DNA of 19,214 nucleotides from Candidatus Thorarchaeota archaeon (lineage in GTDB: Archaea; Asgardarchaeota; Thorarchaeia; Thorarchaeales; Thorarchaeaceae), in NCBI GenBank assembly GCA_011364985.1, contig RDOC01000013.1:1-19214 (forward strand), read 5' to 3'. The translations under genes and the position numbers were made by a program. Shown here piece after piece: positions 3,166 through 19,214 of the stretch (the first letter of the stretch is position 1; every line of letters starts with the position of its first letter). The notes beneath the pieces were generated by a model that worked only from the letters and a program-made list of their open reading frames with translations, made no database searches and had not been told where the DNA came from.

Positions 3166-4194
3166 ATGTCCAAATTTGACCTTATCGAACAGACTTTCCT
3201 AGGTAATCTTGATGAGCTGATTCCAATCTCTTTATGGAAACATTATCCAGAGATTGATCGCACTCCTGAGGGGTTGGCCGCTGAAGAAATCAAGTTTCAC
3301 AAAGAATTCGATCACGATTTGCTGAAGATCTCATTTCATGGACGATACCCTGTTGTCGATTGGGGATGTGAAGTAGTCTATGACGGAGCCATTTCCGGCT
3401 CAACAACATGCACGAGCTTTGCAATCACTCAATCCAGTGACTGGGAAACTCTTGAGCCTCTTGACGTCAATGATGGTGAGTTCGGAAGGCAAATTCGAGC
3501 AGTTGAATTGATACAGGAGTATGCTGACGGAAGAGTCCCTACACTTGCTACTGTGTTTGATTCTCCGATGGTGGCTGATAAGCTGTCTAAGAGGTCGCTT
3601 ACTGATCACTTGGATGAATCGCCTGAGGTCATGGAGAATGCTCTGGACATAATAACAGATGTTATGGTCGACTTCGGCAGAGCCACACTCGAGGCTGGGG
3701 CAGATGGGATCTTCCTTGCATCACAGCATTCAACTCGTGCCTCAATTAGTGATGAACATTACGAGCAATTTGTCTATCCCTTTGACAAGAAACTAATTTC
3801 CAAGCTGAGAAGCAAGGCAAAATTCATTGTGATGCATTTACATGCAAGAGAGGAAGGAGAGGAGATCCGATTTGATAGAATTGCTAAGACTCCCGGTATT
3901 GATGCAATAAACTGGGAAGATCAGAGTGCAAACTTGAGTCTTCTTGATGGGAAGAAACGATTTGGTAAGGGTGTTCTTGGCGGCATTGATCACAAGGGTG
4001 TGTTTCGCACAGGTTCCGCTGATGAGGCTGTGGAACAAGTCCTATCAGCCGTACAGGAGGCAAAGATGAGGCGTTTAGTTGTCGCCCCTGGCTGTGTAAT
4101 CACTATTGACACACCTCCAGAGAATATCCGAATAGTAGTGGATTCAATACGAGGCATTAATCCATGGGCTAAGGAATGGGAGGGTTTCAGTTGA
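3166..4194 (+). CDS. Uroporphyrinogen decarboxylase (URO-D)/MtaA-superfamily protein, probably not true HemE
   Basis: LWKHY, EAGADGIF, MHLH, AINW, LGGID and VAPGC pattern of the URO-D fold. The HemE RQAGRY motif is absent. Confidence 0.8.
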   Translation: MSKFDLIEQTFLGNLDELIPISLWKHYPEIDRTPEGLAAEEIKFHKEFDHDLLKISFHGRYPVVDWGCEVVYDGAISGSTTCTSFAITQSSDWETLEPLDVNDGEFGRQIRAVELIQEYADGRVPTLATVFDSPMVADKLSKRSLTDHLDESPEVMENALDIITDVMVDFGRATLEAGADGIFLASQHSTRASISDEHYEQFVYPFDKKLISKLRSKAKFIVMHLHAREEGEEIRFDRIAKTPGIDAINWEDQSANLSLLDGKKRFGKGVLGGIDHKGVFRTGSADEAVEQVLSAVQEAKMRRLVVAPGCVITIDTPPENIRIVVDSIRGINPWAKEWEGFS

Positions 4195-5906
4195 CAAAGA
4201 ACCGTGAAGTGGCACAAGCTCTGGAGGAAATATCCCTCCTTCTGCAGATTGAGGGAAAGGACAAGTTCAAGTCTCTTTCTTATGCCAGAGCCGCAAGGTC
4301 TATCACTGGATTGGGAGAGGACATCGAGAACATTCGAGATAGGGGCGAACTCACGAACGTTCCCGGGATTGGCAAGGCCATTGCAGATAAGATAGAGTCT
4401 TTTCTTGACACAGGAGAGATCAAGCTTCTAGTCGAGTTGAGGGAACGTGTTCCAGTTAAGGTGTGGGAGCTAGAGGCCATTCCCGATGTTGGGCCAAAGA
4501 CGATCAGTCTGCTTTACAGAGAACTGGGAGTGACGGACTTGGTGTCTCTTGAAGAGGCCCTGGATGCAGGTAAGCTTGAAGGTCTCAAAGGGATGGGGAA
4601 GAAGACAATAAGTAAGATAGCAGATGGCATAAAGATTGCAAGAGCTGGGGCTTCTCGTACTCTACTAGCTGAGGCAATGCCCATTGCTAACAGACTAGTT
4701 GAACGCCTGAGCAGAATCTCTGATGTGAATCAGGCTGTTGTGGCAGGATCTCTTCGTCGGCGAAGAGAAACCATCGGCGACATCGATATTCTAGTGGATG
4801 CATCCAAGGCCTCCAAGATAATGGACGCCTTTGTTGGTATGGAAGATATTGCGGATGTGTTGGTCAAAGGTCCAACGAAGTCATCCGTACGGACAAAAGA
4901 TGGACTGCGAATTGACCTGCGTGTGCTTCCGACAGAGAGCTACGGCGCAGGGCTCCAATACTTCACGGGGAACATCGATCACAATGTTAAGCTTCGAGCT
5001 ATTGCTAAGACGAAGGGCCTACTTCTGAACGAGTATGGCCTGTTTCGGAATGATGAGCAAGTTGCAGGGCAGGGCGAAGAAGGAATCTACGATGCACTTG
5101 GTCTGGATTACATTCCACCTGAACTTAGAGAAGATATGGGTGAGATTGAAGCTGCGCAAGAGGGGAAGCTTCCCAAGCTCATCAAGTTGGAAGACATTCG
5201 TGGTGACCTGCATACTCATACCGACCAATCAGATGGCAAAAACACGATTGATGAAATGCTAGATGCAGCTGTTGAAAAGGACTACGAATACTACTGCGTT
5301 TCTGACCACACACAGAGTCTAACAATTGCCAATGGAATGGATGAGGCACATGTACTGAAGCGCATTGAGGAGATAGACGAGCTCAATGCATCTGGAAGAT
5401 GGAAAATGAAGATTCTCAAAGGAGCAGAGGTCGATATCCTGGCCCATGGAGAACTCGACCTTGATGACTCCGTCTTGGATCAACTGGACATTATCACTCT
5501 TTCAATTCATAGCAGAATGAAGGACACCAAACAGGTAATGACTGAGAGGGTATGCCATGCATTGGAAAGTAAGTATGCTCATATTCTTGGACATCCCACC
5601 GGACGTCTTTTACTAAAGCGTCCTGAGTTTGAGATTGACATGGAAAAGGTGTTTGAAACCGCAAGGCACAACAATGTTGTGATGGAACTCAATGCTCATC
5701 CTCAACGGCTCGATTTGAATGTGGGGAATCTTCGGGCAGCAAAAAGATGGGGACTTAGGATTGCCATAAACACTGATGCACATAGAACTGGCGAACTTGA
5801 CTACATGCAATATGGTATATTTCAGGCGCGGCGCGGGTGGGTCGAAAAATACGACGTCATCAACACGCTTCCTCCAAAGGAACTTATGAAATCACTTAGA
5901 AAATAA
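4191..5906 (+). CDS. polX: DNA polymerase X family with C-terminal PHP (3'-5' exonuclease) domain
   Basis: HhH motif VPGIG, GSLRRRRETIGDIDIL, IDLR, YFTG, and PHP motifs DLHTHT..SDG, SDH, GAEVDI, HPTGR, NTDAH. The likely start is TTG 4191 (GGAGG upstream, overlapping the previous TGA); the track starts at 4176. Confidence 0.95.
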   Translation: MTKNREVAQALEEISLLLQIEGKDKFKSLSYARAARSITGLGEDIENIRDRGELTNVPGIGKAIADKIESFLDTGEIKLLVELRERVPVKVWELEAIPDVGPKTISLLYRELGVTDLVSLEEALDAGKLEGLKGMGKKTISKIADGIKIARAGASRTLLAEAMPIANRLVERLSRISDVNQAVVAGSLRRRRETIGDIDILVDASKASKIMDAFVGMEDIADVLVKGPTKSSVRTKDGLRIDLRVLPTESYGAGLQYFTGNIDHNVKLRAIAKTKGLLLNEYGLFRNDEQVAGQGEEGIYDALGLDYIPPELREDMGEIEAAQEGKLPKLIKLEDIRGDLHTHTDQSDGKNTIDEMLDAAVEKDYEYYCVSDHTQSLTIANGMDEAHVLKRIEEIDELNASGRWKMKILKGAEVDILAHGELDLDDSVLDQLDIITLSIHSRMKDTKQVMTERVCHALESKYAHILGHPTGRLLLKRPEFEIDMEKVFETARHNNVVMELNAHPQRLDLNVGNLRAAKRWGLRIAINTDAHRTGELDYMQYGIFQARRGWVEKYDVINTLPPKELMKSLRK

Positions 5907-5927
5907 ACTATGCATGCCTTTTCGAAT

Positions 5928-5982
5928 AGTCACATATTGTGACTTCAACGTGTGACCCTACATTGTGGCTTCGCTATATATA
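5928..5982 (+). promoter_or_regulatory. Operator array plus TATA box for the small-ORF cassette
   Basis: Palindrome AGTCACA-TAT-TGTGACT (5928-5944). TGTGRC occurs at 5938, 5951 and 5964 (13-bp spacing). TATATATA at 5975-5982. Confidence 0.6.
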
Positions 5983-6014
5983 CTAATTCTGAGCAGTATC
6001 TTTTGTGAACTATT

Positions 6015-6116
6015 ATGGCTCCAGCAATAAATTCCTTCGTTTTATCCACGAAGAAGAACACCACCAAGGTCGCTTCGACCGATGCCCTTTACCAAGCATA
6101 CCTGTACCGGAGGTGA
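6015..6116 (+). CDS. Small peptide, 33 aa (MAPAINSFVLSTKKNTTKVASTDALYQAYLYRR)
   Basis: ATG lies about 33 nt after the TATA box. Its C-terminus resembles that of the next peptide, and its last codons form the SD of the next ORF. Confidence 0.6.
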   Translation: MAPAINSFVLSTKKNTTKVASTDALYQAYLYRR

Positions 6117-6122
6117 AGAATC

Positions 6123-6218
6123 ATGGCACTGGCTAAGAACGACAAGACTCGCAAGATTGAGGCTCACCGAGTCAAGATTTCCACCCAGGCAATTACTCGT
6201 GCCTTTTTCGCGAGGTAG
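6123..6218 (+). CDS. Small peptide, 31 aa (MALAKNDKTRKIEAHRVKISTQAITRAFFAR)
   Basis: Strong SD GGAGGTGA at 6109-6116, 6 nt before the ATG. Shares the ST-x-A-h-x-x-A-aromatic-x-x-R motif with ORF 6015. Confidence 0.65.
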   Translation: MALAKNDKTRKIEAHRVKISTQAITRAFFAR

Positions 6219-6223
6219 TTCCA

Positions 6224-6367
6224 ATGAATCAGCATTCTGAAGAACTGCCAAAACCTCCATCGACAAGGTCGAAGACTAAGGAGAACCAACCTAGTGCTGG
6301 TAGCACCATGACGCTAGGCGAAATGCTTGCGTTGGAAGCAATAAAGGCATCTCTTTCTTTTCTCTGA
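6224..6367 (+). CDS. Small peptide, 47 aa (MNQHSEELPKPPSTRSKTKENQPSAGSTMTLGEMLALEAIKASLSFL)
   Basis: SD GAGGT at 6212-6216 before the ATG. Disordered N-terminus and a hydrophobic/amphipathic C-terminal helix. Confidence 0.55.
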   Translation: MNQHSEELPKPPSTRSKTKENQPSAGSTMTLGEMLALEAIKASLSFL

Positions 6368-6426
6368 ATTATCTCTGCGACAGTGAAATCACTAAGAAGT
6401 AAAAGTAATGGTGCCGAGAATGGGAT

Positions 6427-6456
6427 TTGTTCCAATTATGCGAAGTGCATAACCGC
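6427..6456 (-). other. 30-nt BHB tRNA intron at non-canonical T-loop position 58/59
   Basis: Central helix GTTC/GAAC, bulges GA|G and AA|A, and a 9-bp intron stem CGGTTATGC/GCATAATTG. Confidence 0.88.
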
Positions 6457-6486
6457 TCGAACCCATGAACTCCTACAAGAGTGGAT

Positions 6487-6519
6487 TTCTTCTCGGAGTC
6501 AAGCCAATGGCTTTGCGAT
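6487..6519 (-). other. 33-nt tRNA intron at canonical position 37/38
   Basis: Insertion between G37 and A38. Intron stems TCG/CGA and AAGCC/GGCTT. The BHB central helix is imperfect (CTCA/GAAG). Confidence 0.85.
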
Positions 6520-6720
6520 CTTGAGTCCACCGCCTTTGACCGGGCTTGGCTATCTCGGCTTTCTGGCCTAAAGATTCAGACAGTAGCTATTTAGCAGTTT
6601 TGGCCTTTTTCCTTATCGCATGAAACCTACTCCTTTCACCAAGGAATCTATGTGCTAGAACAAATCCGACAGGCTTATCGGTAGGAATCGCTCTCAGTAA
6701 TCCTTTGAGGTGGCCATTGA

Positions 6721-7512
6721 TTGCCGAGGTTCAAGCATGAAGATCTCTTGATGTTCTACAAAGTTGTCGGAAACGGAGAGCCCCTTCTCTTAATACATGG
6801 ACTCGGTTCTGATCACAGAGGGTGGGAGTTCCAAGAAGAGGCATTGGCAGCCCACTTCCAGCTAATTATCCCAGACTTGAGAGGCCACGGACAAACAGAG
6901 GTTGATGAGTTGGGTATGATGATACCCGCAGCAGTATTTGCCGATGACCTTGCTGCTCTTCTTCAGCATTTGAAACATCCAAAGGTACACGTAGTCGGGC
7001 ATTCCTTGGGAGGAATTGTAGCACAGAGTTTTGTACTACGATACCCAGACCGAGTACGAAAACTGGTACTCATGGGAACCACACCTAAGGTCACCGACGA
7101 CTTGATTGACGTTGTGTATGGCTGGCGGGAGGTTCAGGTTGAGGGTGGTCAAGAGGCATACTTCTGGACATCATTGCGAAGTGGATTCAGTGATGAATGG
7201 ATAGAAAACAACCCTGACATTGTTCAGCATCTAAAGGAGCTGTCTGAAGAGGCCAATGAGGAAGGGATCGTTGCAGCTGGTCTTGGTCTTGCATCAACGG
7301 ACTTCACAGGAAGATTGGGCGAGATCAAAGCGGAAACCATGATTATTCATGGAGATGAAGATCGAATCATCAAGCCGGAAATGGGTGTCCTTCTTCATCA
7401 GGGCATTCAAGGCTCAGTCATGAAGGTCTTCAAGAAATGTGGTCATTCACCTACTGTCCAAGAACAAGATAGGCTAAATGGAGTCCTAATTGAATTCTTT
7501 AAGGATGAATAG
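6721..7512 (+). CDS. Alpha/beta hydrolase (PcaD/enol-lactonase-like fold)
   Basis: HGLG oxyanion loop, DLRGHG, GHSLGG nucleophile elbow, HGDED acid and GH catalytic His. GAGGTG SD upstream. Confidence 0.9.
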   Translation: MPRFKHEDLLMFYKVVGNGEPLLLIHGLGSDHRGWEFQEEALAAHFQLIIPDLRGHGQTEVDELGMMIPAAVFADDLAALLQHLKHPKVHVVGHSLGGIVAQSFVLRYPDRVRKLVLMGTTPKVTDDLIDVVYGWREVQVEGGQEAYFWTSLRSGFSDEWIENNPDIVQHLKELSEEANEEGIVAAGLGLASTDFTGRLGEIKAETMIIHGDEDRIIKPEMGVLLHQGIQGSVMKVFKKCGHSPTVQEQDRLNGVLIEFFKDE

Positions 7513-7517
7513 GGCGC

Positions 7518-7826
7518 CTACTCTTCGTTGGGAAGCTCCTCAAGATGTGGCCTAATCAGATTGTAGAAGTCTGAGATAATCCTGCTCTTCGGGTCCTCTG
7601 TTTCTAGGATGAAGAGGCGTATCTGTTGACCCACCTTGATTTCTTTGACAAGACCCATATCAACCAAAGGCTGCATGACACGATGAATTGTTGAGTGTGC
7701 CAGACCGGTTTCCTTGGCAATTCTGCTCAGATTGAAGAATTCCTTCGGTCTATCCAGAAAATGCTGAACCACCCTGGTCTGAGCACGAGATGCAAACACC
7801 TTTTCCAGCAACTTCTTCACTTCCAT
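7518..7826 (-). CDS. Winged helix-turn-helix transcriptional regulator
   Basis: FNLSRIAKETGLAHSTIHRVMQPLVDMGLV HTH followed by a wing. Confidence 0.85.
   Translation of the reverse strand: MEVKKLLEKVFASRAQTRVVQHFLDRPKEFFNLSRIAKETGLAHSTIHRVMQPLVDMGLVKEIKVGQQIRLFILETEDPKSRIISDFYNLIRPHLEELPNEE

Positions 7827-18074: not shown

Positions 18075-19214
<1,140 letters not shown>

Follow-up and report, generated by a model that had tools for sequence, protein, structure and literature searches.

A tRNA-Leu(CAA) gene interrupted by two introns lies on the reverse strand of the window, i.e., the whole 19,214-nucleotide stretch of DNA analyzed here. It is the sole copy in the assembly of a Thorarchaeota-like Asgard archaeon, and it is very probably functional. 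One intron occupies the anticodon loop's canonical site (37/38), and the other occupies a position in the T-loop (58/59). We infer that the gene is transcribed, that its precursor is cut at the exact bonds described below, and that its exons are ligated. In the proposed pathway, a BRE/TATA promoter would drive synthesis of a precursor with two protein-spliced introns, an (alpha-beta)2 EndA would cut within both 3-nt bulges of each bulge-helix-bulge (BHB) motif, and RtcB would ligate the three exons (40, 30, and 18 nt) to give an 88-nt class II tRNA with A73 and CCA. The two-intron gene is a good but ordinary instance of the multi-intron tRNA genes already described in Asgard archaea. What is modestly new is the family-wide pattern of intron presence and absence, the occurrence of a constant-length intron at three adjacent positions of one orthologous gene, and a hint of an intron-less allele among the DNA of the source sample.

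Gene anatomy and splicing motifs

Read as the reverse complement (minus strand), positions 6409-6559 of the window form the 151-nt body of a tRNA-Leu(CAA) precursor with an encoded CCA. Exon 1 (6559..6520, minus strand; 40 nt) contains the 5′ strand of the acceptor stem, the D-arm, the 5′ strand of the anticodon stem, and loop nucleotides C32-G37 with the anticodon CAA; its assignment comes from the ARAGORN cloverleaf and from BLAST with the mature sequence. Intron 1 (6519..6487, minus strand; 33 nt) follows G37, at the canonical position 37/38. Exon 2 (6486..6457, minus strand; 30 nt) contains A38, the 3′ strand of the anticodon stem, the long variable arm, the 5′ strand of the T-stem, and T-loop nucleotides 54-58 (UUCGA). 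Intron 2 (6456..6427, minus strand; 30 nt) follows A58, at T-loop position 58/59. Exon 3 (6426..6409, minus strand; 18 nt) supplies A59 and U60, the 3′ strands of the T-stem and acceptor stem, A73, and CCA. With both inserts out and the exons joined, ARAGORN draws the cloverleaf of an 88-nt class II tRNA-Leu(CAA) with A73 and CCA, in which the acceptor stem has 7 bp, the D-stem 3 bp, and the variable region 14 nt. The anticodon stem is GUGGA/UCCAC with loop CUCAAGA, and the T-stem is AUGGG/CCCAU with T-loop UUCGAAU. A long variable arm, an A73 discriminator, a CAA anticodon, and a standard cloverleaf are thus all present, as in a class II tRNA-Leu.

The gene is invisible to standard tRNA searches. 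ARAGORN found no tRNA in the full 151-nt precursor or after removal of intron 1 alone, and it mis-parsed the gene when intron 2 alone was removed. The cloverleaf therefore needs both excisions, in agreement with the first-pass annotation, which had read the locus as tRNA-Leu(CAA) with 33 nt inserted at 37/38 and 30 nt at 58/59. In its unspliced form, the gene escaped both ARAGORN run on the window and Rfam at gathering scores; at E≤10, Rfam gave no match within positions 6300-6700, and a search of the whole genome with the tRNA model RF00005 at E≤1 also missed it. The further prediction that standard tRNA finders may miss such genes thus holds for ARAGORN and for the Rfam tRNA model. It is the insert in the T-loop that hides the gene from the Rfam model, because the orthologue in a related genome, G071, whose exons are 100% identical to those of the window gene and which lacks the T-loop intron, scores 47.3 bits with RF00005 (cut-off 29). 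Since its exons are identical, the same score validates the exons of the window gene. Routine finders drop such genes, and the tRNA complements of metagenome-assembled genomes (MAGs) consequently appear incomplete.

Intron 2 is bounded by a strict BHB motif. We scanned every pair of 5′ and 3′ sites in the locus for a 4-bp central helix (H), two 3-nt bulges, and outer helices h and h′, with the bulges cut after the second base and all four pairs of H required. By far the top-scoring solution was the one at 58/59 (H 4/4, h′ 9, h 2), with H formed by GUUC/GAAC and with bulges GA↓G and AA↓A (arrows mark the cut sites). The 5′ strand of H consists of exon nucleotides G53-C56 (6459..6462, minus strand), and its partner is the intron GAAC at 6429-6432. 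The inner helix h′ has 9 bp, CGGUUAUGC/GCAUAAUUG, and closes a 5-nt loop, ACUUC; the intron is thus laid out as 1 nt, a 9-bp stem strand, the loop ACUUC, the 9 nt of the other strand, GAAC, and AA. The outer exon helix h has just 2 bp (G52-U60 and G51-C61), in a register shifted relative to the T-stem. Excision at the bulges restores the T-loop UUCGAAU and the 5-bp T-stem, and ARAGORN calls the fully spliced sequence Leu(CAA). This solution matches exactly the motif drawn in the first-pass annotation, i.e., a BHB made by refolding the T-arm, with the same two bulges and a 9-bp stem.

This BHB can form only if the T-arm refolds: G53-C56 would pair with the intron GAAC instead of building the T-loop. 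The strict BHB conformer has a predicted energy of -8.8 kcal/mol versus a minimum of -14.7 kcal/mol for the T-stem plus hairpin, and a variant with four native T-stem pairs and a 5-nt 3′ bulge comes to -12.2 kcal/mol. Neither BHB conformer is thus the fold of lowest free energy, which weighs against the proposed splicing, and the enzyme would have to select the motif. Comparison with relatives supports the pairing. Among ten orthologues with a 58/59 intron, 94.7% of pair cells are standard pairs, versus 25-41% for partners slid by 1-3 columns; the sequences are related and the register was picked by the motif, so these figures lean toward the motif. Compensatory two-sided changes occur in five of the nine h′ stem pairs of the same ten orthologues, and this hairpin covariation is independent of the choice of register. 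Covariation was counted on the 58/59 class alone because MAFFT aligned the three position classes (see below) by tRNA register rather than by BHB register.

The motif at intron 1 is relaxed. In the 37/38 register, h is the anticodon stem (5 bp), the bulges are AG↓A and AA↓A, and h′ is UCG/CGA, with an inner AAGCC/GGCUU hairpin beyond it. The central helix has two of four pairs (C32-G and U33-A), C34.A and A35.G being mismatched. The result is hBH-like, with the 5′ site within an internal loop and a good bulge at the 3′ site. H is weaker in the window gene than in any of the 16 related genes scored in the same register, all of which have three or four of the four pairs. Intron 1 differs from the near-identical intron of G071 at three positions, and one of these, a G-to-A change at window position 6491, loses the C34-G pair; the A35.G mismatch is clade-wide, and with the change at 6491, it leaves two of four central pairs. 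The BHB conformer of the anticodon arm has a predicted energy of -9.6 kcal/mol versus a minimum of -12.2 kcal/mol. A broad-specificity EndA with a lysine in its Crenarchaea-specific loop (CSL; see below) would be expected to tolerate this relaxed motif.

ATC is present at both ends of intron 1, and the sequence alone is therefore compatible with any position from 37/38 to 40/41. Homology with relatives settles the position as 37/38. No strict BHB exists for intron 1 at any of the four registers that ATC permits, and when registers 38/39, 39/40, and 40/41 were checked by hand, the central helix never beat that at 37/38. In the exhaustive scan with H 4/4, no solution for intron 1 left a tRNA behind. 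Intron 1 GACUCCGAGA can form long pairings with the variable arm, but these were dropped, since essential parts of the tRNA would be deleted.

Intron distribution among relatives and within the genome

We searched DNA for the orthologous gene in 41, and then 87, related genomes, and recovered it in many of them. The 37/38 intron is present in all Leu(CAA) orthologues examined and in two Leu(UAA) genes, with the same BHB architecture: CUCA/UGAG or CUCA/GGAG, AG↓A, and UC/GA. This shared architecture accounts for the conservation of ATC at the 5′ end of the intron. The T-loop intron is patchy, being present in 17 genomes and absent from 20, all in one family, with presence and absence mixed within two genera. 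In four genomes (G071, G073, G063, and G077), exons 2 and 3 are identical to those of the window gene and the T-loop intron is absent. Where the intron is present, it lies at 58/59 in ten genomes, at 59/60 in five (loci L016, L053, L054, L067, and L014), and at 56/57 in two (loci L009 and L068). Sixteen of the 17 genomes have a 30-nt intron, and the remaining one has a 28-nt intron. Orthologous Leu(CAA) genes thus carry, at three adjacent T-loop positions, introns of near-constant length with differing hairpin sequences, a pattern that reflects either intron sliding or repeated gain. One orthologue with a 58/59 intron (L050; G057:C305) has a 5′ end, GCTGACATAGTCCAGCC, that does not pair with its own 3′ acceptor strand; L050 may be a pseudogene or contain an additional 5′ intron.

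The same genome has at least six other tRNA genes with T-loop introns of 29-30 nt, found by a screen in which candidate BHB introns were spliced out before ARAGORN was run, and by a scan for the intron design. These introns lie in Phe(GAA) (C16:18551-18580, position 56/57), in Val(CAC) (C18:84299-84328, position 59/60), in a Val-like multi-intron gene (C16:23944-23973, position 58/59), and at C15:85579-85607, C15:208325-208354, and C15:169519-169548. The intron of the Val-like gene and intron 2 of Leu(CAA) have GCGG...ACUUC...GGAACAA in common. The majority of the six have the layout 1+9+5+9+4+2, with the loop ending in UUC in several; the intron at C15:85579-85607 has 29 nt and the layout 1+9+5+8+4+2. 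The structure-only scan for the 30-nt design gave 181 hits versus 138-164 in reversed or shuffled controls. Shape alone is therefore not significant genome-wide, and a hit carries meaning only where it restores a known RNA or reading frame. Searches with blastn-short for copies of intron 1 or intron 2 elsewhere in the genome returned chance matches of 10-15 nt only, and thus give no evidence for recent intragenomic transposition of either sequence. The design scan also picked up a 30-nt insert of this design at C15:202262-202291, which splits the reading frame of an apparent EF-1alpha gene between the codons for KDFI and KNMI.

A tentative reading, to which we give rather less than even weight, is that the T-loop intron is one copy of a stereotyped, still-turning-over class of 30-nt mini-introns in Thorarchaeia, often with an NNUUC loop. 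This reading draws on the 56/57, 58/59, and 59/60 positions and on near-identical alleles that differ by exact presence or absence of the intron, i.e., the window gene versus that of G071, and, in the source metagenome, a junction that lacks the intron (see below). If it is true, the locus could capture the gain, loss, or sliding of a BHB intron in the act. The constant 37/38 intron, the patchy T-loop intron, and identical exons with or without that intron make a compact data set on intron gain, loss, and shift. How archaeal tRNA introns are gained, lost, and shifted is an open question according to a 2026 preprint on Asgard archaea (bioRxiv 10.64898/2026.10.13.758758).

State of the gene and competing explanations

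A BRE/TATA-like promoter, CCAAAACTGCTAAATA, is located at 6603..6588 (minus strand), with its TATA at -34..-29 from the mature 5′ end. We take this sequence to be a promoter from general knowledge of archaeal promoters. A BRE/TATA-like motif occurs at a matching upstream distance in about 35 orthologues. The family-wide form of the motif, CCAAAAC/CGGAAA-N3-TAAATA/TATATA/TTTATA, 29-44 nt upstream of tRNA-Leu(CAA), offers a clean BRE/TATA consensus for the lineage. Downstream, an oligo-T run (6401..6404, minus strand), 5 nt past CCA, probably marks an archaeal transcription stop, judging from its sequence. No RNA run was found to contain positions 5400-7600, and two sets of metatranscriptome contigs from the same study had no match to positions 6300-6700; both results are neutral as evidence.

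Neither RF00005 at E≤1 nor BLAST with the mature sequence revealed another Leu(CAA) gene in the assembly, which is 74% complete. The locus is thus not a pseudogene beside an intact assembled copy, the outcome that would have counted against the original reading. Two Leu(caa) calls made by ARAGORN in intron mode (C15:37043-37144 and C11:252281-253048) are false positives, since they were not reproduced on the excised sequence and have no Rfam tRNA match at E≤1. The genome does have a Leu(TAA) gene, at C15:141814-141934, and tRNA-Leu(UAA) could serve as a reader of UUG.

It is unlikely, in our estimate, that the gene is a decaying or dispensable copy whose T-loop intron is spliceable and whose weak 37/38 BHB makes maturation inefficient, with UUG being read by an unassembled Leu(CAA) or by tRNA-Leu(UAA). 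The central helix at 37/38 is what invites this explanation: H has two of four pairs here versus three or four in 16 related genes, one pair having been lost to the G-to-A change at 6491. The incompleteness of the assembly and the presence of the Leu(TAA) gene would also accommodate it. However, the exons are perfect and match a relative's exactly, the promoter is intact, and no second Leu(CAA) gene turned up in the assembly. The 3′ bulge retains the 5-bp anticodon stem and two pairs as its flanks, with 3 bp in h′, and enzymes that bear the CSL cut bulge-helix-loop (BHL) substrates (PMC3241643). Weaker still is the case that the inserts are not EndA introns at all, i.e., that they are self-splicing elements or insertions retained in the mature RNA. 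Their lengths of 30 and 33 nt fall far short of those of group I or group II introns, whose ribozyme core spans hundreds of nucleotides, and the region has no Rfam match at E≤10. An insert kept in the T-loop or in the anticodon loop would abolish tRNA function, and both the BHB geometry and the covariation agree with EndA. We consider this explanation extremely unlikely.

The contigs of the source sample raise another issue. In both DNA runs that contain the locus, a 104-nt contig terminates precisely at 6457, i.e., at the boundary between exon 2 and intron 2. In one sample contig, CGAGAATGGGAT, the end of exon 3, stands immediately before 6457, which is the junction expected without the T-loop intron. 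The source of this junction would be an allele that co-occurs in the sample or a G071-like species whose exons are identical. These contigs, from the two DNA runs, and the four related genomes with identical exons 2 and 3 and no T-loop intron would fit a strain mosaic, in which the sediment holds alleles with and without the intron and the MAG contig joins in a neighboring strain's version, so that the two-intron form might not be that of exactly this genome. Against this, the two-intron gene is real regardless of which strain it belongs to, and the same intron is found in this gene in 16 other genomes. The intron-less contig may derive from a G071-like species in the sample, and contigs give no allele frequencies. 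We regard a mosaic as very unlikely, and retain the reading of a functional two-intron gene. A further contig, with a joint at 6433-6517, was considered as a deletion and rejected; one of its sides has 26 letters, the contig matches at 90% likeness, and we read it as another organism's orthologue.

Splicing machinery, host, and relation to known systems

The assembly is a 1.70-Mb MAG in 22 contigs, 74% complete. The nearest named relatives of the PolX gene adjoining the tRNA gene are in Thorarchaeota/Promethearchaeota MAGs (71-76% identity), which points to a Thorarchaeota-like Asgard host, as had been supposed from the window sequence.

Two EndA paralogues are encoded in the genome, each with N and C domains (PF02778 and PF01974), as is the RtcB ligase. 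EndA alpha (C11:364554-365120, minus strand; 188 aa) has the catalytic chain of the Aeropyrum pernix enzyme, 3P1Z_B, as its top solved relative (1.7e-46), and the Tyr/His/Lys residues are conserved. Its segment GQPVGIRKPKSADFDKPL aligns without gaps over the CSL with GQPLDVEKPRGADFEGPL of 3P1Z_B, K43 corresponding to K44 of the A. pernix enzyme (APE) and K45 to R46. EndA beta (C15:156010-156651, minus strand; 213 aa) has Ser in the column of the M. jannaschii EndA catalytic His. We take that His to be catalytic as a matter of established knowledge, and the H-to-A mutant entry 3AJV fits this. In the A. pernix enzyme, K44 is needed to cut relaxed BHL substrates, and the CSL confers broad specificity (PMC3241643). 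The two paralogues therefore support, at the level of homology, an (alpha-beta)2 splicing enzyme that has the CSL (L1) lysine and belongs to the broad-specificity type; classification of the EndA architecture had been proposed with the original description of the gene.

The genome's enzyme and that of A. pernix (alpha2beta2, PDB 3P1Z; PMC3241643) share the catalytic Tyr/His/Lys and the CSL Lys in the alpha subunit, and both have a non-catalytic paralogue. They differ in the beta subunit, which here is full length, with both N and C domains in its 213 aa, and most closely resembles the enzymes of M. kandleri and M. jannaschii. The eukaryotic TSEN complex (Sen2/Sen34/Sen15/Sen54) is likewise heteromeric, and EndA alpha matches the catalytic domains of Sen34 and Sen2 (E 1e-11 to 1e-7). 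Whereas TSEN works at 37/38 and measures from the body of the mature tRNA, the T-loop intron demands pure BHB recognition. The comparative data suggest that this Thorarchaeia genome relies on splicing, through a BHB, at a site in the T-loop for which the T-arm must refold.

Non-canonical and multiple tRNA introns in the Thermoproteales and other Crenarchaeota were reportedly described by Marck and Grosjean in 2003 and by Sugahara in 2007 and 2008. A passage of one review on Thermoproteales/Crenarchaeota gives T-loop BHB introns at 56/57 and 59/60 in addition to 37/38, e.g., in P. islandicum tRNA-Pro (PMC4090602). Those archaea resemble the present case in having both T-loop and 37/38 introns and a heterotetrameric EndA with the CSL. 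They belong to another phylum, however; 58/59 is absent from the positions given in that part of PMC4090602, and the introns here have a stereotyped 30-nt layout.

Closer precedents come from Asgard archaea, whose tRNA genes have several BHB introns each, in canonical as well as non-canonical places (PMC5829648; PMC11291895; bioRxiv 10.64898/2026.10.13.758758). Multiple and non-canonical introns were published in 2018 for one Thorarchaeota genome, among others, and in the same work, Kaneta et al. described the (alpha-beta)2 EndA with the L1 loop in Asgard archaea (PMC5829648). Interrupted genes make up 92-95% of the tRNA genes of Atabeyarchaeia and Freyarchaeia (Valentin-Alvarado et al. 2024, PMC11291895). 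A 2026 census of 90 genomes found that T-arm introns are frequent, mostly have a canonical BHB, and are often missed, and it treats EndA as a widespread permissive background; the main text of this preprint does not mention Thor lineages (bioRxiv 10.64898/2026.10.13.758758). The gene described here is like these published cases in its multiple BHB introns, its T-arm intron, its escape from annotators, and the (alpha-beta)2 EndA with L1/CSL in its genome. It differs in that the published papers focus on Atabeyarchaeia, Freyarchaeia/Jordiarchaeia, and single representatives, whereas the present data concern Thorarchaeia, with family-wide presence and absence. The first-pass annotation had gone on to suggest that a structure-directed EndA in an Asgard host bears on the ancestry of eukaryotic TSEN. 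The EndA type is as it supposed; the inference is not new, because Asgard introns and the (alpha-beta)2 L1/CSL EndA were already published (PMC5829648; PMC11291895; bioRxiv 10.64898/2026.10.13.758758). The locus leaves knowledge of EndA/TSEN ancestry unchanged.

Two other features of the window merit mention. A partial 16S rRNA gene occupies 18075-19214 (plus strand) and is cut by the contig end; in a hairpin at 18271-18300 (plus strand), it exceeds the Rfam archaeal SSU model by about 25 bases, an excess that the 30-nt design scan did not flag. The PolX-type DNA polymerase encoded at 4176-5906 (plus strand) has a PHP domain, and past the Thorarchaeota MAGs, the next relatives found, at about 42% identity, come from bacteria (Anaerolineae/Chloroflexi), a hint of inter-domain transfer.
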